Positions 2,769 through 50,225 of a stretch of 64,000 nucleotides of DNA are shown one piece after another. The DNA comes from a virus (lineage: Duplodnaviria; Heunggongvirae; Uroviricota; Caudoviricetes): positions 49,354 to 113,353 of IMG/VR virus record IMGVR_UViG_2627854282_000001; one strand, given 5' to 3'. The notes under the pieces were generated by a model. It ran no database searches and was not told where the DNA came from. It worked only from the letters and a program-made list of their open reading frames with translations. Made by a program: the position numbers and the translations under genes. Numbering within the stretch: position 1 is the first letter of the stretch; each line of letters starts with the position of its first letter.

Positions 2769-3370
2769 GAAGCCACCTTCGACGACGGCAGATTGAGCGC
2801 CGCTTCGAGCGCGCTCACCATGTCGTCATGATCGCAGCCTGGCACATGCGCCATGGCGCGGACGACCGCGGCGTCATCGAAATCGAGCGGCGCCGCCCTC
2901 CTCGCGATCGCTGCGCGAACCTCGAGCTGGATCTTTGCGATCGTCTGTGCGGTATCGACCGCAGTCAGTCTTACGATCTTCCGTGCGCACTCCAGCGCGA
3001 TCCTGTCGATATCGATCGACGCGAGCAGATCGATCAAGGTGTCGCCACTACCGATGCCGCGCATGTCGAGGACATCCGGCTCGAGCGGCTCCCTCGCCTC
3101 GATCGTCACAGGGCCCGAGCCATAGGCATTGAAGCCGTCCGCCGCCGCATCGGGCGTTGCTCGCGGAAATTCCGCAGCGCGGCCGCGCCAGAACACGTAG
3201 AAATCCTCGCCCATGCCCTGGGCACCGACGTCGTAGAAGTTCTGCGCTTCGGAGTTGTAGAACACCCCCACCGGAATAGGCCGCAGCGCGTTGCAATACC
3301 GGCAGCGCATGCGGAGCTCGGAATTGTTCGTGGCGCAGTCGCAGCGCCAGATGCCGGTCACGGTTTTCAT
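2765..3370 (-). CDS. Cys-rich hypothetical protein (201 aa)
   Basis: N-terminal WRCDCATNNSELRMRCRYCNALRP is zinc-ribbon-like; the gene is coupled to its neighbours. Confidence 0.45.
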   Translation of the reverse strand: MKTVTGIWRCDCATNNSELRMRCRYCNALRPIPVGVFYNSEAQNFYDVGAQGMGEDFYVFWRGRAAEFPRATPDAAADGFNAYGSGPVTIEAREPLEPDVLDMRGIGSGDTLIDLLASIDIDRIALECARKIVRLTAVDTAQTIAKIQLEVRAAIARRAAPLDFDDAAVVRAMAHVPGCDHDDMVSALEAALNLPSSKVAS

Positions 3371-3561
3371 CGCGTGTAGAAATCCATTATGGGAGCGCCG
3401 AGACCGTCGAAGCGGTCCGCCGCGGCCTCGGCCAGCACCAGTTCGAAGCGCGAGCGCGAGATCGGCCGCGTCCGGCCGTCTGGATAGCGGATATGGGCTA
3501 CGGTCAGATCGGTCGTTCCGAGGTCAACGCCGACCACCATCGGTTGCTGCTGCGTGCTCAT
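3367..3561 (-). CDS. small protein with actin/Hsp70-like phosphate-1-like N-terminus (64 aa)
   Basis: MVVGVDLGTTDLTVAHI resembles the DnaK/actin-fold N-terminal motif IGIDLGTTNS, but the protein is only 64 aa. Confidence 0.35.
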   Translation of the reverse strand: MSTQQQPMVVGVDLGTTDLTVAHIRYPDGRTRPISRSRFELVLAEAAADRFDGLGAPIMDFYTR

Positions 3562-3630
3562 CAGTCGAACCTCACCGTGATGTTTTTGAAAGACGGCGGC
3601 ACGGCGGCCGCCGCCAGTTGCCGGCCTGAC

Positions 3631-4059
3631 TTAGGCCGCCGCCTTGTCCATTTCTTCGAGCTGCTTGAGCAGTTCTTCCTTCGACGCCTTAGACAGCGCC
3701 TCGTCTTCCTTCGACGCGATTGCGTCGACCAGCTTGCGGCGCTTCTCCGCGCGCGCCGCCGCGGCCTGGGCGTCGGCCGCTTCCTTCTGCTTCACGGCGA
3801 TGATGTGCTTGATGATGTCGAGCTTCGCCTCGAGCTCGCCCTTCCGCGGGTCGGGATTGACGTTGACCAGCGAGTCCTCGGTGACGCCCTTGAGCTCGGT
3901 GAGGATGCCGCGGCCGACGGTCTCGAGATCGAACTTCACGTCGCGGGTGATGCCGGAGCCGGCGACGAGCGGAAGATCCCACAGCTGCTCGACGGTGAGA
4001 TCGCCCTTGATGGACGGGAAGCGGAACTTCTTGCGCGCCGCTCTTTCGAAAATATCCAT
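3631..4059 (-). CDS. hypothetical protein with C-terminal coiled coil (142 aa)
   Basis: Clean ORF with a protein-like sequence and a K/E/A-rich C-terminus. Confidence 0.5.
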   Translation of the reverse strand: MDIFERAARKKFRFPSIKGDLTVEQLWDLPLVAGSGITRDVKFDLETVGRGILTELKGVTEDSLVNVNPDPRKGELEAKLDIIKHIIAVKQKEAADAQAAAARAEKRRKLVDAIASKEDEALSKASKEELLKQLEEMDKAAA

Positions 4060-7219: not shown

Positions 7220-7287
7220 GGCATAAAGCGGATATCCGGCATCAATGATGCAGACGTAACATGTGAAAGAAATGCTTTCAAGAGTGA

Positions 7288-8456: not shown

Positions 8457-9455
8457 CTTCCCATGAACTGAAATCCAAAATGGCCTCGGGCGGGAAAATA
8501 GAAAAGCCCCCGCCGGGTCAAAAAGTGTTTTGGTCACAGCCGCGGAATTTACCCGCCCAGCCGGTCCGACCGTGCCCGCGCGCGAAATTTTAAGCGGGGC
8601 CCCCATAACCCCGTGCGGGGCCTGGCGCCGGCGCGCGGGCGGCGGGCGATTGAACCCACGCGGCGGGCGGCCACGGCGGCGGGCGGGCGGCGCGCTGGTG
8701 CGGCGCATGAAGATCGGAAGGCGCGACGCGTGCGCCTTCGAATGCAGGGCAAGCCATTGGCAAGCGTGCGATGCATGGCGACGGCAGGCATCGCCGAGCA
8801 AGGCGCGGCTGGTGCCTGTCATGCGTGGCGATGATTGGCCGCCCGTGGCGGGCGCGACCCTGCCCGGGCGCTGGCGCGCTATGGTGTAGGTGTGTGCAAG
8901 GTAGGTGCGGCATGCGGTGCGGTCACGCACGGCGGCGGCGCGCACGCCAGCGCATGGCGTCGCCTGGACCGGATGCCGATACGGACTAGACGCCAGCGCC
9001 GCCCTGCCCGGGCGGCGGGCGCATGGTGCGCATGTGGGCGCACACGCCAAGCGACTGCAGCGCATGCGGCCGGCCGGGCGCGCCGAGCTGGCGCGCGTCG
9101 GTCTGGCGACGAGCGCGGGCGCGGTCGACCACGATCCGCAAACGGTCGCCGGGCGCGGCGACCAGCGTTCGAAAACAGTGAACGCGCGCCGTCTATTGTG
9201 TACGTGAACAAATAGTGAAAATGGCGCGGACCGATTGGAAATCAGAAAGTAGCGGCGGCGCGCCGTGCCTCTGTACGGGCTTCTGTGTGGCGAATAGAGG
9301 CATATGGATTTTCGACCATGAAACCAGAATGAAAGCGCGTCCGATTTCCTGAAATATGAGCAGCGCGACATGCGCGGCTGTTGATTTCCACGCGTGAAAG
9401 GCCTATATTTTTCTTGCGGGCGAACTGCGTCCGCGCCGGGCTCTTGCCCTAACCC
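8457..9455. repeat. GC-rich (~75%) non-coding region with degenerate GCGCATG-cored and GGCGGGCGG repeats
   Basis: No credible ORF; the six-frame ORFs are R/A/G-rich junk. Repeats include GCGCATGAAG, GCGATGCATGGCG, CATGCGTGGCG, GGCATGCGGTGCGG, GCGCATGGCG, GGCGCATGGTGCGCATGTGGGCGCACA and GCGCATGCGGCC, with GGCGGGCGG runs at 8641-8700. Confidence 0.4.
9438..9455 (+). promoter_or_regulatory. leader motif copy 1 (GGGCTCTTGCCC-TAACC)
   Basis: Small GC hairpin plus TAACC immediately before the ATG at 9456; see findings. Confidence 0.5.
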
Positions 9456-10671: not shown

Positions 10672-11595
10672 ATGAACGCTCTTCCCTCATTCACCAGCGC
10701 GGCGCCGACGGGCGCGCCGTCCGCCATTGGCCAGAAAGCAATGCTTGCCGGTCTCTCAATCACCATGTGGGCCGGCCGCAAGCTGGACAAGAAAGTAACT
10801 GCCGAAGTGAACCACGCGCACGGCGCGGCGGCCGATGCCGCCCGCGTCACCAAATCGCTGGTCTCGAAACAGGCGCTGGCGGACATTCTGCGGATATCGA
10901 ACGCGGCGCGCGCCGTGCACTATGCGCGGACGCTTCCTTGGGCGGACTCGGGCGCGCGCATTCTCTGCAATGCCGGCTTTGCCGCCTATGCCGACGAGTT
11001 GCGGAAGCTGGAATATGAATTCCGCGACGCGGTCGACGCGTTCGTTTCCGGCTATGCCGATTATGTCGAGGCGGCGCGCATTGAGCTGAACGGCATGTTC
11101 CGCGACGACGACTATCCGCCGGCATCTTCGATCCGCGCGCGCTTCCGCTTTGAGCGGTCGATTTGGCCGATGCCGTCGGCGGCTGATTTCCGCGTCGACA
11201 TGATCGAAGGCGAGGCGGACCGAATCCGCGCCGACATTCAACGGCAATTCGATGCCGCCATGCGCACGGCAACCCGCGATGTGTTCGAACGCATCCAAGA
11301 GACCGTCGGCCACATGGTCGAAAAGTTGCGCGCCTTCGTGCCGCACTCGGGCAAGAAAGGCGACCGCGCGGAAGGCATCTTCCGCGACTCGCTTGTCGAA
11401 AACGTGCGCGATTTGGTCAAGCTGATGCCGTCGCTGAACGTGACCGGCGACGCCATGCTTGACGCGCTGGCCAAGCGCATGGAAACGCTTTGCCGCTTCG
11501 ACGCGGAAGACTTGCGGACCGACAAACAAGCCCGCCAGGACACGGCGGACGCGGCGGCCGGCATCCTTGCCGATATCTCTGACTTTCTCGCCTGA
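10672..11595 (+). CDS. DUF3150-like protein (307 aa)
   Basis: Internal ATG with GGAAAGGA SD. Size and sequence are typical of the DUF3150 family that accompanies MoxR/vWA pairs on mobile elements (recalled, not searched). Confidence 0.65.
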   Translation: MNALPSFTSAAPTGAPSAIGQKAMLAGLSITMWAGRKLDKKVTAEVNHAHGAAADAARVTKSLVSKQALADILRISNAARAVHYARTLPWADSGARILCNAGFAAYADELRKLEYEFRDAVDAFVSGYADYVEAARIELNGMFRDDDYPPASSIRARFRFERSIWPMPSAADFRVDMIEGEADRIRADIQRQFDAAMRTATRDVFERIQETVGHMVEKLRAFVPHSGKKGDRAEGIFRDSLVENVRDLVKLMPSLNVTGDAMLDALAKRMETLCRFDAEDLRTDKQARQDTADAAAGILADISDFLA

Positions 11596-44205: not shown

Positions 44206-44436
44206 TCATGCGCCGACCTCGGCGTCCGGTTCCTTGCCGTAGATATCCGGCCGCAGGAGATGGCGGGAGATGCCGGTGATCTGCTCGAGCACCAGCACGC
44301 GATCGGGCGGTGCCTTCTTCCACTGCGAAATGGCCTGGGATGTGATTTCGATGCCCTTATCGGCGAATGCTTTCGAGAGGTCGGTCGCTCCGCCGGCCTT
44401 CTGTTTCGCTGCGTCGAGGGCTTCTTGCATTGTCAT
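44206..44436 (-). CDS. Cro/YdaS-like HTH regulator (76 aa)
   Basis: ITSQAISQWKKAPPDRVLVLEQITGISRHLLRPDIYG is the YdaS/Cro-type HTH. Divergent from the CI-like gene, with operators between. Confidence 0.65.
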   Translation of the reverse strand: MTMQEALDAAKQKAGGATDLSKAFADKGIEITSQAISQWKKAPPDRVLVLEQITGISRHLLRPDIYGKEPDAEVGA

Positions 44437-44443
44437 GCCGGAT

Positions 44444-44501
44444 TGAAAGCATATCTTTCATCCGTTTGCAAGCACCTCTGTCGAAGAAAGAATCGCTTTC
44501 A
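44444..44501. promoter_or_regulatory. two TGAAAG-N5-CTTTCA operator palindromes in the cro/cI intergenic region
   Basis: TGAAAGCATATCTTTCA (44444-44460) and AGAAAGAATCGCTTTCA (44485-44501) lie between the divergent starts at 44436 and 44508. Confidence 0.5.
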
Positions 44502-44507
44502 AATGTT

Positions 44508-44882
44508 ATGAGTGAGGCGATGACAAAACAGCCACGAAAGCCAACCGCCGCTGCCATCGAGCTCGGCAAGCGGATCCGCCAGCTGCGGGTCGAGATCCTT
44601 GAGATGGAAAGTCAGCAGGCGTTCGCCGATCTTCTCGGGGTGACGCGCGGCGCCGTCGGCAATTGGGAACTAGGACAGGGAATAAAGTTCGAAAACGTCC
44701 AGCTTATCGCGCTGAAAACCGACTGCTCGCTGGAATGGTTGACGCTCAACCGCGGCGTGCCATATCCGGTCCGAGGCATCGACCATGACATCAGCCAGCT
44801 GCCGCAAGAGGACCAGGACGACCTCATTCCAGACATCAAGGCCATGGTGAACCGGCGGCTCGAGAAATACAAAAACCGATAA
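44508..44882 (+). CDS. XRE-family HTH repressor (CI-like; alternative start 44520)
   Basis: IRQLRVEILEMESQQAFADLLGVTRGAVGNWELGQG is an XRE HTH; C-terminal domain about 60 aa. Confidence 0.65.
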   Translation: MSEAMTKQPRKPTAAAIELGKRIRQLRVEILEMESQQAFADLLGVTRGAVGNWELGQGIKFENVQLIALKTDCSLEWLTLNRGVPYPVRGIDHDISQLPQEDQDDLIPDIKAMVNRRLEKYKNR

Positions 44883-45364: not shown

Positions 45365-45817
45365 ATGCATGAATGGGAACTGCCCATTTGGGCAGCCTGG
45401 GCGGGGGAAAAAACTTTTCGCGAAACAAGCCGACGCGAGCACATTGAATTCCAGAACATGAATATTAGCCGAGATGGATATAGCGCGAGGTTCGATGTCA
45501 TGTTTGCCAACGAGAGAAATTCGGTCGCCGTTCCTTTGCACGAGATCGATGCCTTGATCAGCCAATTGCAGCAGGCCGCCAAGGAGATGCGGAGCAAGCA
45601 GAGAATTCATCGGCGAGGAGGGATCGACCCGTTGCGGGAGCTTTTCGATACTGCCCTCGACCCCGTGAAGAACGAGGTGTTTGTGCACCCGAGAGGCGAT
45701 GTCGTCTTTCTGCACCGGTTTGACGGGCATGCCCCCGTCGCCATCAAGATGAAGCCGACCGACATCAAGATCCTCCGAGCAAAGACCAATGCGGTCCTGG
45801 CGAGGCTGGCGAACTGA
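45365..45817 (+). CDS. hypothetical protein in low-GC island (150 aa)
   Basis: Lower-GC coding region with AGGAAATAACAAATG start context. Confidence 0.5.
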   Translation: MHEWELPIWAAWAGEKTFRETSRREHIEFQNMNISRDGYSARFDVMFANERNSVAVPLHEIDALISQLQQAAKEMRSKQRIHRRGGIDPLRELFDTALDPVKNEVFVHPRGDVVFLHRFDGHAPVAIKMKPTDIKILRAKTNAVLARLAN

Positions 45818-46264
45818 GCACCAGGCATGGCTAGGTCATTTAGATGGTCCTGCACACACGACAGCGGGACCATCCACTCCTGCGGCCTTGGCGCCGCCAA
45901 GCATGCGTAGAACCGATATACCCCAAGCTAGTTTTGCTATCGCAGACCCTACTGCGCTGCACCTGGCATCCAAGTGATTCGGTCGAATCGGAACGCGCCA
46001 GAGAACTAGGTGTGATTGGTGCTTGGGTTATTCCTCGAGTTGCCAGCTCATTGATGAGGACGGGCCATCAACCCCGTCTGGTTCTGTCCCGTACTATGGG
46101 CCCGGGCGGCCGTTTGGGCATTCATCAACCGAGGTGATCGGCGCCGCGGGTCAATGCTCAAACAAGACCGCTGCTTTTGGGTGCCAGATCGCAAGATGTT
46201 GGCGGGAGCCTCCGAGTCAGACCCAATATCTTGCGATTTTCTTCCCGAAAGCGTCGCCAGCAGA

Positions 46265-46293
46265 TTGCGTTCCAGCATGGTTATGGCTATATA
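46265..46293 (+). promoter_or_regulatory. sigma70-like promoter (TTGCGT-N17-TATATA)
   Basis: -35 TTGCGT at 46265-46270, a 17-nt spacer and -10 TATATA at 46288-46293. No ORF downstream before a strong terminator. Confidence 0.35.
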
Positions 46294-46298
46294 AAGGG

Positions 46299-46379
46299 CT
46301 GGAGCTTTCACGAGCTTTTTCTTTTGCATAGCGCGCTGCTTTCACCCCGGCCGGATCACCCCGCCGGGGTTTCTTTTTG
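46299..46379 (+). ncRNA. candidate ~80-nt sRNA (promoter-to-terminator unit)
   Basis: Predicted start about 7 nt after the -10, ending at an intrinsic terminator; no credible ORF. Located 200 nt upstream of the ProQ/FinO-family gene. Confidence 0.35.
46345..46379 (+). terminator. rho-independent terminator
   Basis: CCCCGGC-CGGATCACCCC-GCCGGGG hairpin followed by TTTCTTTTTGT. Confidence 0.55.
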
Positions 46380-46413
46380 TCCCCCATGAATCAGCCGCGG
46401 TCAATATTTTTGT

Positions 46414-46461
46414 GAAAGGAATGCTTTCCGACGCTTGCGCATGTGTGAAAGATATGCTTTC
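46414..46461. promoter_or_regulatory. two more GAAAG-N5-CTTTC operator copies upstream of the ProQ-like gene
   Basis: GAAAGGAATGCTTTC (46414-46428) and GAAAGATATGCTTTC (46447-46461), each preceded by TGT. Same palindrome as in the cro/cI intergenic region. Confidence 0.45.
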
Positions 46462-46583
46462 AATGTCCGTGTTCATCGGATGGAAGTCCCTCAGTCTGTA
46501 GGAGGCGCCGCCCGTGAAGGTGTGAAACGGAACGCGACAAGGACGGGCGCAAATGCCCGTCCGGCTCGCCCCGGGGGAAAGAC

Positions 46584-46976
46584 ATGCCGATAAGCCTTTA
46601 TCTCTCTAAGGTCGCCGAAACCCGCGAGGTTCTGGCCGAGAGATTCCCGTCCACATTTATGCGGAAGGGCGAGAAGAACAAGCTGCCGCTGATGATCGGC
46701 ATCACCGACAATGTCATCGCCGCTCTTCCGGAACTTGATCCCGAGCTCATCCAGGCAGCGATACGCGACTATTGCTCCGGCCCGAAATACGCCCGAGCGA
46801 TGAAGGTCGGAGCGCAGCGCGTCGATCTCGAGGGGCGGCCGGCCGGGACGGTAAGCGCCGATGCCCACGAGCGTGCTCTGCGGCTTGAAGAGAAGCGGCG
46901 CAGGGCAGCGAGAGAATTGCAGGCGAGACGCGTCGCCACCAAGGCGCAGCGCAGAGCTGAGGGGGCTTTTCCATGA
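46584..46976 (+). CDS. ProQ/FinO-family RNA-binding protein (130 aa)
   Basis: LAERFPSTFMRKGEKNKLPLMIGITDNVIAALPELDPELIQAAIRDYCSGPKYARAMKVGAQRVDLEGRPAGTVSADAHERA aligns closely by eye with the ProQ N-terminal FinO domain. Confidence 0.8.
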   Translation: MPISLYLSKVAETREVLAERFPSTFMRKGEKNKLPLMIGITDNVIAALPELDPELIQAAIRDYCSGPKYARAMKVGAQRVDLEGRPAGTVSADAHERALRLEEKRRRAARELQARRVATKAQRRAEGAFP

Positions 46977-49173: not shown

Positions 49174-50225
49174 CTGAAGCTGTCCGCCACGACCCTGGAA
49201 TCTATTTCGGTATGAGCGATACCGAGTATCACGCCGATGACGCGCTCGGTTCCTCGCGCATCAAGGCGATCGCCGTCGACCCCTATGAGGCGCAGTTCGA
49301 TCACCTCTACGGCGAGGACAAGGACACCGACGCTATGATCTTCGGCAGCGCGCTCCATGCCCGCATGCTCGAGGGCCGCGCCGCCTTGGAGGCGAAGTTC
49401 TGCAAGGAATTCGACAAATCGTCGATCCCGGAGGGCGCCCTCGACACCGTGGCCGACATCCGGGCGTGGCTCGACAAATACGATCAGCGCGGCATCAGCG
49501 CGAAGAACAAGGCCGACCTCATCAAGATCGTACAGCAGATCGATCCCGACCAGCCGATCGTCGAGGTGATCAAGGCGAAGTGGGAGAAGGACAACGAGGG
49601 GAAGATTGCGCTGAAGCCTAAGCGCTGGGCCCAGATCGATATCGCCGCCCGCTGGGTGCAGCGCGATCCCCTGCTCTCCGCCGTCATGACCGACGGCACC
49701 TTCAACGCCGGCGCTCCAGAAGTCTCGATCTTCTACGAGGACCGCGGTGTCCGCCTCAAGGCACGGTTCGACCGGCTGCTCCGGCACGCCATCGTCGACG
49801 TGAAGAGCTTCGCGCCAATGTTCCCGGGGCCGATCGAGACCACGGCGGTCAAGACGATTGACCGCATGCGCTACGACATCCAGGCGGCCGACTACTTCCG
49901 AGCGTGGGGGCACGCGAAGGAACTGCACAAAGCCGGCCTGGTATTCGGCGAGGAGCCGCACCCGGGGTTCCTCGCCGAAGCCTTCGACCGCGATGAGCCG
50001 AAATGGATCTGGATCATGGTCAAGACCAAGGGGGCGCCGCAGCCGCTCGTCATCGACTGGCAGGCGAAGTTTGCCAAGGCTGCAGCCGCCGAGCGGGTGG
50101 AACGCGCCATCGACGAATACATCCGCCTTCGCGACGAGCATGGCGAAGACCAAGAATGGCCGCCGATGCGGCCGGCCATGACCCTGGAAGACCAAGACCT
50201 CCCCTCATTCTTTGGGCGCAGCTGA
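49170..50225 (+). CDS. PD-(D/E)xK-superfamily phage exonuclease (351 aa)
   Basis: FGSALHARMLEG, then D...IVDVKS (D/E-x-K core), typical of YqaJ/RecE-like phage exonucleases; adjacent to an SSAP-like gene. Confidence 0.7.
   Translation: MTEAVRHDPGIYFGMSDTEYHADDALGSSRIKAIAVDPYEAQFDHLYGEDKDTDAMIFGSALHARMLEGRAALEAKFCKEFDKSSIPEGALDTVADIRAWLDKYDQRGISAKNKADLIKIVQQIDPDQPIVEVIKAKWEKDNEGKIALKPKRWAQIDIAARWVQRDPLLSAVMTDGTFNAGAPEVSIFYEDRGVRLKARFDRLLRHAIVDVKSFAPMFPGPIETTAVKTIDRMRYDIQAADYFRAWGHAKELHKAGLVFGEEPHPGFLAEAFDRDEPKWIWIMVKTKGAPQPLVIDWQAKFAKAAAAERVERAIDEYIRLRDEHGEDQEWPPMRPAMTLEDQDLPSFFGRS

Follow-up and report, generated by a model that had tools for sequence, protein, structure and literature searches.

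A predicted small RNA unit and a probable structured RNA upstream of a ProQ/FinO-domain gene in a Mesorhizobium prophage

A promoter-terminator unit upstream of the ProQ gene

The DNA analyzed here (the window; 64,000 nt, positions 49,354 to 113,353 of IMG/VR record IMGVR_UViG_2627854282_000001) is a prophage of Mesorhizobium plurifarium ORS3356 (GCA_000824745.1). By its gene content the element is phage-like, with CI-like and Cro-like regulators, repressor operators, an AAA_23 ATPase, a DUF3799 exonuclease, RecT (in syntenic loci) and relatives in IMG/VR, and the region considered here reads as the immunity and early region of a lambda-like prophage. Within this region, a gene-free stretch of 767 bp separates a gene for a 150-amino-acid (150-aa) protein from a gene for a ProQ/FinO-domain protein (hereafter ProQ; Table 1). 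That stretch holds a large region of predicted RNA structure, a short unit composed of a candidate promoter and an intrinsic terminator, and two repressor operators followed by a leader hairpin.

Table 1. Features of the immunity and early region and of related loci (window coordinates unless a locus is named)
Feature	Position	Strand	Remarks
YdaS/Cro-like gene	44206-44436	-	first in the order of the region
CI-like repressor gene	44520-44882	+	after the YdaS/Cro-like gene
Arc-like gene	between the CI-like repressor gene and the 150-aa gene	-
Gene for 150-aa protein	45365-45817	+	without annotation; large RNA and terminator follow on the same strand
Large structured RNA region (probable)	45836-46262	+	core multi-branch domain 45908-46086; long hairpin 46173-46252
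Candidate sigma-70-type promoter	46264-46292	+	-35 ATTGCG (46264-46269), 17-nt spacer, -10 CTATAT (46287-46292)
Predicted ~81-nt non-coding RNA	46299-46379	+	5' stem-loop, U-rich linker, terminator
Stem-loop 1 of the small RNA	46302-46317	+	GAGCUU-UCAC-GAGCUU (window and L001)
Intrinsic terminator	46344-46379	+	8+2-bp GC hairpin, loop AUCAC, then UUUCUUUUU
Two repressor operators, TGAAAG-N2-ATGCTTTC	46413-46428; 46446-46461	.	flank the early promoter of the ProQ operon
Leader hairpin, GGACGGGC-GCAAAU-GCCCGUCC	46541-46562	+	21 nt upstream of the ProQ start codon
Gene for ProQ/FinO-domain protein	46584-46976	+	130 aa, basic C-terminal tail; PF04352
Copies of the leader hairpin	L011 ~2706-2727; L022 ~3032-3053; L040 ~3715-3736; L041 ~3712-3733
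Unrelated small RNA-like cassette	L011 2340-2452; L040 ~3320-3440		insertion (~150 nt in L011) relative to L022

Seven related loci served for comparison. L001 and L002 are syntenic with the window and encode ProQ proteins 85% and 60% identical to that of the window, respectively; L007 and L039 are two overlapping contigs from one sample and were treated as one locus (58%). The others are L041 (identical to L042 and L043), from a Mesorhizobium metagenome-assembled genome (47%), L040 (49%), and the IMG/VR prophages L011 (44-45%) and L022 (43%).

An earlier note on this DNA had proposed that a short RNA runs from a promoter to a strong terminator immediately upstream of the ProQ gene. The promoter hexamers that it named, TTGCGT (46265-46270) and TATATA (46288-46293) separated by a 17-nt spacer, are indeed present, and shifting the frame by one base gives ATTGCG-N17-CTATAT, the rhizobial form. 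Compared with the rhizobial sigma-70 consensus, CTTGAC-N17-CTATAT (PMC2873474), the candidate matches at all six positions of the -10 box and at three of six in the -35 box (TTG), with exact spacing. The pattern TTG-N19-CTATAT occurs at two sites in the window, against 0.01 expected. TTGC and CTATA are found at exactly equal spacing in the window, L001, L002, L007 and L041, and the spacer between them has diverged, with nine of its 17 bases differing in L002 and an unrelated spacer in L041, where the promoter takes the form TTG-N19-CTATAA. The second TTG-N19-CTATAT site of the window lies at 9381-9408 (+ strand; TTGATTTCCACGCGTGAAAGGCCTATAT) and includes an operator-like half-site, GTGAAAGG.

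The GC hairpin and U-tract described in the earlier note were likewise found where it placed them. The stem consists of ACCCCGGC paired with GCCGGGGU (46344-46351 and 46363-46370) plus two inner pairs, such that the hairpin reads ACCCCGGC-C-GG-AUCAC-CC-C-GCCGGGGU (46344-46370) and is followed by UUUCUUUUU up to 46379. Nine of its pairs are GC pairs, and its predicted folding energy is -19.9 kcal/mol (z = -3.6). A stringent scan of both strands of the window (perfect 8-bp stem with at least six GC pairs, loop of 3-12 nt, and at least seven T in nine positions) returned this site as its sole match and returned none in 30 dinucleotide shuffles; a generic terminator scan showed no enrichment in the region (four found, 4.6 expected). 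The terminator does not vary among the window, L001, L002 and L039; the L041 copy is 88% identical, and its differences are compatible with pairing (C-G to U-G and A-U to G-U). The seven nucleotides that precede it (GCUUUCA) are also kept in the window, L001, L002 and L007+L039, so that the hairpin and its flanks are unusually constant in sequence, beyond what structure alone would account for. GGAU stands at the 5' side of the apical loop in all four versions of the terminator compared (window, L041, L011 and L040).

In L041, the junction to an operator-promoter block of the L011 type falls directly 3' of the terminator, which argues that the terminator belongs to the RNA module upstream of it. 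The terminator likely also stops transcription coming from the lysogenic side and insulates the early promoter downstream. The earlier note took the hairpin as the end signal of a small RNA but overlooked this second likely role.

The distance from the -10 box to the terminator stem is 51 nt, and the predicted transcript, ~81 nt long, agrees with the unit of about 80 nt without coding potential that had been proposed: it contains no ATG or GTG start and no conserved frame. The sole frame starts with TTG, spans 21 codons, lacks a Shine-Dalgarno sequence, and ends at a position not kept in relatives. A three-part fold of stem-loop, linker and terminator is common to the window, L001 and L002. 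Stem-loop 1 varies to GAACUU-UGAC-AGGUUC in L002 and GAACUU-UCAC-GGGUUC in L039; all 24 of its alignment cells are paired, and four of its six pairs vary, one by a double change and three by one-sided changes. Stem-loop 1 is absent from L041. No gene lies on the strand opposite the small RNA.

Database searches placed the small RNA in no known family. Rfam 15 at its gathering threshold gave no match in the window, a permissive search gave sub-threshold, terminator-driven matches only (for example, NsiR1 at 25.8 against a cut-off of 39), and an Rfam search of L011 returned nothing. Exact-pattern scans with 20-28-mers from the RNA and terminator against viral, genome and metagenome collections found chance matches only. 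Two candidate interactions were considered and dropped: kissing between the terminator loop (GAUCACC) and 46130-46139, for which there was no covariation in L041 (alignment judged by eye), and pairing of CUUUCAC motifs with GUGAAAG in the operator and leader, which was too short and showed no covariation in L002 (also by eye).

Conservation of the unit beside ProQ genes, which the earlier note had offered as a check, held in part. Five loci have the unit (window, L001, L002, L007+L039 and L041), in each case with a ProQ homolog downstream of it, and it is missing from L011, L040, L022 and a further locus, L003. In L041, nearly all sequence between the large RNA and the terminator differs and is shorter, yet TTGC, CTATA and the terminator survive. 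On this comparative evidence, a conserved promoter and terminator around a diverged body is the signature of selection on the signals, with the body free to vary. In the same slot, L011 and L040 carry an unrelated small RNA-like cassette of ~100-150 nt, made up of two hairpins plus a terminator (z = -3.8), which by its terminator end speaks for a link to ProQ. A unit of this sort is thus frequent beside ProQ without being universal, and its sequence is not tied to ProQ, as the slot holds a different cassette in these two loci and none in L022 and L003.

The probable large structured RNA and the 150-aa gene

The picture of the locus in the earlier note omitted a neighboring structured RNA of ~430 nt, which is the best-conserved element of the module. 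In a three-way alignment of ~7 kb, 45852-46248 is 86-94% identical to L002, a level equalled only by the DUF3799 gene, and the core (45908-46086) has only nine variable sites in 186 nt across four loci. A protein-coding explanation for this conservation was ruled out: variable sites are distributed 21, 21 and 19 over the three codon positions with no period-3 signal, 1-nt indels break the frame, and no open reading frame is kept. The copy in L041 (~2906-3341) is 69% identical over 435 nt, whereas the flanking proteins are 31% (150-aa protein) and 47% (ProQ) identical.

Folding of the region is strand-specific, with -179.9 kcal/mol and z = -3.6 on the + strand, compared with z = -0.3 on the - strand. 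The RNAalifold structure of a five-sequence alignment has 121 pairs, with 93.7% of cells paired, and 16 pairs show double changes, compared with 4.1 +/- 1.7 in shuffled alignments (0/500) and 2-7 in slid controls. Support is strongest for a long-range helix (45915-45928/46021-46033), with three consecutive compensatory pairs, and for a 17-bp hairpin (46186-46202/46223-46239), with five. These counts are to be read with the fact that nearly all of the compensation comes from one divergent lineage and that the structure was derived and tested on one alignment. The large RNA matched no Rfam family. Of 31 sources searched with nhmmer and a covariance model of the core, only the window and L041 yielded it, and no homology to it could be recognized in the non-coding regions of L011, L022 and L040. 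On the strength of these comparisons, 45836-46262 is probably a new structured phage RNA.

No convincing conserved promoter was found at the 5' end of the large RNA, so the RNA is probably the 3' part of the transcript of the 150-aa gene, possibly its 3' untranslated region (UTR), and would end at the terminator described above. The 150-aa protein itself had no match in Pfam, PHROGs, PADLOC or NCBIfam, and its AlphaFold model (predicted local distance difference test score 51.5) is too poor to interpret. Its homologs are encoded upstream of ProQ in L001, L002, L011, L022, L040 and L041 and upstream of the large RNA in L007. The 150-aa gene, a long non-coding region and ProQ occur together in seven loci, and every ProQ locus with enough flanking sequence has a gene for a protein of 148-150 aa and a non-coding stretch of 600-1400 bp upstream. 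None of 23 further IMG/VR loci with the AAA_23 recombination module has either the ProQ gene or the 150-aa gene. It is this wider module, more than the promoter-terminator unit, that goes together with ProQ.

Operators, leader hairpin and the ProQ protein

The promoter-terminator unit sits just outside the operators, on the lysogenic side. Between the divergent CI-like and Cro-like genes, the operator 16-mer recurs, exactly or with one mismatch (44444-44460 and 44485-44501); its pattern has 14 matches against 4.0 expected, and both operators upstream of ProQ are kept in L001, L002 and L039. Since operators of the CI/Cro type lie between the terminator and ProQ, the ProQ operon is the early operon of the pL/OL type in this phage, with ProQ as its first gene, and it is presumably repressed in the lysogen. 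Further operator copies lie far upstream, at 7264-7279 (exact) and 10733-10748 (two mismatches).

The leader hairpin precedes the first early gene, whether this is ProQ or Lar. Among six variants (window, L002, L011, L022, L040 and L041), four of its eight pairs are double-changed and 95.8% of cells are paired, giving a covariation score of 0.45, compared with 0.16 (0/500). The loop reads GCRAAU in five of the six variants and GCCAAU in L002. In being a stem-loop that is conserved in an early-operon leader and has a GNRA-like loop, it resembles lambda-type nut/boxB antitermination sites. Such sites would further call for a second copy in the other early operon, a boxA element and an N-like arginine-rich protein; the window holds a single boxB-like copy, no N homolog was identified, and the first early gene encodes the FinO-domain protein. 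Motifs in the ProQ leader resemble motifs in the large RNA (71-88% identity; 46057-46084/46540-46567, 45985-46000/46524-46539 and 46140-46154/46504-46518), a likeness that could reflect chance in GC-rich sequence or shared protein-binding motifs.

The assignment of the downstream open reading frame to the ProQ/FinO family in the earlier note is borne out by a PF04352 match with E = 6.6e-22 (78 bits against a cut-off of 27). The clade profile also matches the structures of E. coli ProQ, NMB1681, Lpp1663, RocC and FinO (5nb9, 3mw6, 6s10, 7rgu and 1dvo), and the window protein aligns to residues 29-125 of the E. coli ProQ N-terminal domain. A Tyr/Arg pair of the FinO domain is required for RNA binding, and Y69 and R79 are invariant in the six clade members. 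By tblastn, none of 50,697 deposited phage genomes encodes a relative of this ProQ, and plasmids gave only homologs of ~40% identity; the module is thus visible so far only in prophages and metagenomes. At the nucleotide level, the region matched no GenBank phage and no PLSDB plasmid by blastn, and a tRNA/tmRNA search found none. Downstream of ProQ lie small open reading frames and then genes for the AAA_23 ATPase, the DUF3799 exonuclease and RecT, the placement of RecT resting on the syntenic loci L001, L039 and L040.

L041 is a mosaic (2816-3752, compared with 45818-46583 of the window) in which the large RNA, promoter and terminator of the window type are joined to an operator-promoter-leader block of the L011/L022 type. 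In this locus Lar stands before ProQ.

Interpretation and relation to known systems

We favor, with about as much doubt as confidence, the reading that the unit is a real small RNA gene. On this reading its terminator would have a second task, stopping transcription from the lysogenic side and insulating the early promoter, and the phage ProQ, after de-repression, would have candidate ligands in the RNAs that end there. Taken by itself, the small RNA candidate is probably real. In the proposed mechanism, a rhizobial sigma-70 promoter would start the ~81-nt RNA, with its short 5' hairpin, U-rich single-stranded linker and very strong intrinsic terminator. The terminator would also end transcription from upstream, through the 150-aa gene and the ~430-nt structured RNA, and so would shield the repressor-controlled early promoter and the ProQ operon. 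Upon induction, the early promoter would be de-repressed and ProQ made, and ProQ would most likely bind the small RNA, the longer transcript at its 3' end, or both, altering stability or pairing. The predicted small RNA ends in a GC hairpin and a U-tail, the feature that FinO domains recognize: they bind intrinsic terminators through the hairpin base and the 3' tail (PMC9674577), and flanking sequence sets their specificity (PMC12001967).

Several observations weigh against this reading. The -35 box agrees with the consensus at TTG alone, and a scan for E. coli-type promoters made no call at the candidate site. Variation in the region peaks at the small RNA, where 100 nt (46249-46348 in the three-way alignment) are 58% identical to L002, compared with 86-94% in neighboring stretches; in L041 the body is only ~25 nt and thus nearly absent, and in the four sequences compared the covariation in stem-loop 1 falls short of significance (90/500 shuffles). 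Duplex and cofold energies calculated for three loci revealed no shared target within ~5 kb on each side, a span beyond which host or late-gene targets would lie, and the best predicted partners differ among the window, L001 and L002. ProQ is also found without the unit: the slot in L022 holds a 10-bp hairpin without a U-tract and no canonical terminator, and in L003 an open reading frame abuts ProQ. Because its gene lies behind repressor operators, ProQ is probably made only on induction, while the small RNA promoter lies outside the operators, so the layout points to different expression regimes for the two. Finally, two 1.1-kb Logan contigs that are identical to the window, L009 (45218-46334; ERR1200765) and L010 (45276-46385; ERR1200764), had been considered as possible transcripts. 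Their coverage is limited to the 150-aa gene and the RNA region as far as the terminator, and the CI-like and ProQ genes are on no contig of either accession. The L007/L039 contigs break at the same place, and since the ends of L009 and L010 fall at sites polymorphic among relatives, breaks in the assembly graph explain these contigs equally well; they were given up as ambiguous and were not counted.

Some of the same observations would fit a terminator that stands alone, as the 3' end of a lysogenic-side transcript and an insulator, with weak or non-functional hexamers and no independent small RNA. We regard this as rather unlikely, though it deserves to be taken seriously. The structured RNA extends to the unit and has no separate terminator, the long hairpin with UUUUCUU being enclosed in a larger stem, and, as noted above, it has no convincing conserved promoter at its 5' end; moreover, the poor -35 box, the unconstrained body and the near-absence of a body from L041 all agree with this explanation. 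It does not account for the identical spacing of TTGC and CTATA in five loci, among them L041, where nearly nothing else in that interval is conserved, or for the maintenance of stem-loop 1 by compatible substitutions. The hybrid structure of L041, with its junction directly after the terminator, raises the alternative that the unit is a recombination junction or another DNA-level element, located at a mosaic boundary and flanked by sequences whose conservation reflects recent exchange or protein-binding sites on DNA. The ~150-nt insertion that distinguishes L011 from L022 in this slot, the breaks of the L007 and L039 contigs inside the unit, and the presence of the operator half-site GCTTTC twice in the RNA body are consistent with that idea. 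We nevertheless judge it improbable, because mosaicism of the DNA alone would hardly produce the constant promoter spacing and the substitutions that preserve the hairpin, the terminator bears a full RNA signature, and GCTTTCAC is not enriched (two found, 2.1 expected).

The unit, placed 200 nt upstream of the ProQ operon, points in the same direction, and the covarying boxB-like leader hairpin hints at control of the antitermination type, such that the unit might instead be a leader or attenuator permitting read-through into the ProQ operon when termination is suppressed, a second and repressor-independent entry to the early genes. However, the body showed no alternative pairing with the 5' arm of the hairpin that could act as an antiterminator, the terminator itself is very strong, and the operators downstream of it would still be occupied in the lysogen, making this explanation very improbable. 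A micropeptide is barely credible: the TTG-started frame of 21 codons is open from ~46327 through the terminator to a TGA at 46388-46390, within the open reading frame 46177-46389, but it lacks ATG or GTG and a Shine-Dalgarno sequence, 1-nt indels interrupt it in L001, L002 and L039, and its stop codon is not conserved.

The preferred reading, a small RNA gene sharing its terminator with a longer transcript, has partial parallels among known RNAs. DapZ and MicL are small RNAs embedded in 3' UTRs that have their own promoters and share the terminator of the mRNA; both are enterobacterial, chromosomal and Hfq-dependent. As in those cases, a short RNA would be made here from an internal promoter and would share its terminator with a longer upstream transcript, which in the window, unlike those of DapZ and MicL, holds a large covarying structured domain. 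Typical ProQ ligands are 3' ends such as 3' UTR fragments (see the 2023 review PMC9977716).

The FinP/FinO pair of F-like plasmids and the Inc/FopA pair of pCol1B9, as described in two sources (PMC9977716, PMC12001967), similarly combine a FinO-domain protein of a mobile element with a short RNA encoded by the same element, and by analogy the protein here would be expected to bind at the terminator hairpin and 3' tail. FinP and Inc, however, are cis-antisense RNAs that overlap the leaders of their targets (traJ and repZ), and the small RNA of the window shows no antisense or target relation of the FinP, RocR or Inc type within the ~5 kb searched on each side, the strand opposite it being empty. 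Here, moreover, RNA and protein belong to a prophage, with phage repressor operators in front of the protein gene. RocR of Legionella pneumophila is a trans-acting small RNA whose terminator stem-loop and 3' end are recognized by the FinO domain of RocC (PMC9674577), a protein whose structures the window protein matches. RocC/RocR differs in being a chromosomal regulator of competence with defined targets, whereas the pair described here is a candidate one.

Among phages, the closest layout is that of the lambda immunity region, where cI-rexAB-t_imm is followed by OL/pL-nutL-N. In both elements, a terminator closes the lysogeny-side gene or genes directly in front of an early promoter under repressor control, with the unit described here in the position of t_imm; operators are duplicated from the CI/Cro switch, a leader hairpin follows (46541-46562 being similar in position to boxB of nutL), a gene for a small RNA-binding protein comes first, and recombination genes come next. 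The window differs from lambda in that its proteins are unrelated to Rex or N, its first early gene encodes a FinO-domain protein (preceded by Lar in L011, L022, L040 and L041), it has one boxB-like hairpin, and a 430-nt structured RNA and a predicted small RNA gene fill the space before the terminator. Short RNAs are known from phage immunity regions, including OOP of lambda, Sar of P22 and c4 of P1/P7, each of which is antisense to, or pairs with, a defined neighboring phage transcript; the specificity of c4 is determined by variation in its sequence, a parallel to the hypervariable body of the small RNA here. Unlike OOP, Sar and c4, the small RNA of the window has no such complementarity within the span searched.

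Among the RNA chaperones of bacteria, FinO/ProQ proteins form a major class, and members encoded by mobile elements are understood for plasmids only (FinO and FopA). Alphaproteobacterial homologs, including those of Phyllobacteriaceae, sit among mobility genes according to part of the 2023 review, and that part names no alphaproteobacterial example among the FinO/ProQ proteins studied (PMC9977716). What is of interest at this locus is mainly the compact module of ProQ plus RNAs and the unreported structured RNA, not the small RNA alone. The ~430-nt RNA, with no Rfam match and conservation far beyond that of the neighboring proteins, would itself be a new structured phage RNA, and the locus offers a compact, testable system in which a prophage FinO-domain gene under repressor control and two candidate RNA ligands lie within 750 bp. 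As a speculation that we hold to be unlikely but worth stating, the 150-aa gene, the large RNA, the small RNA, the boxB-like hairpin and a FinO-domain protein in the position of lambda N might together constitute an undescribed RNA-centered control or immunity module of alphaproteobacterial prophages, in which the phage ProQ acts on the phage's own RNAs. If so, the phage ProQ could, for example, set the timing of lysis and lysogeny, the specificity of superinfection or read-through of termination, as opposed to serving as a general chaperone taken over from the host.

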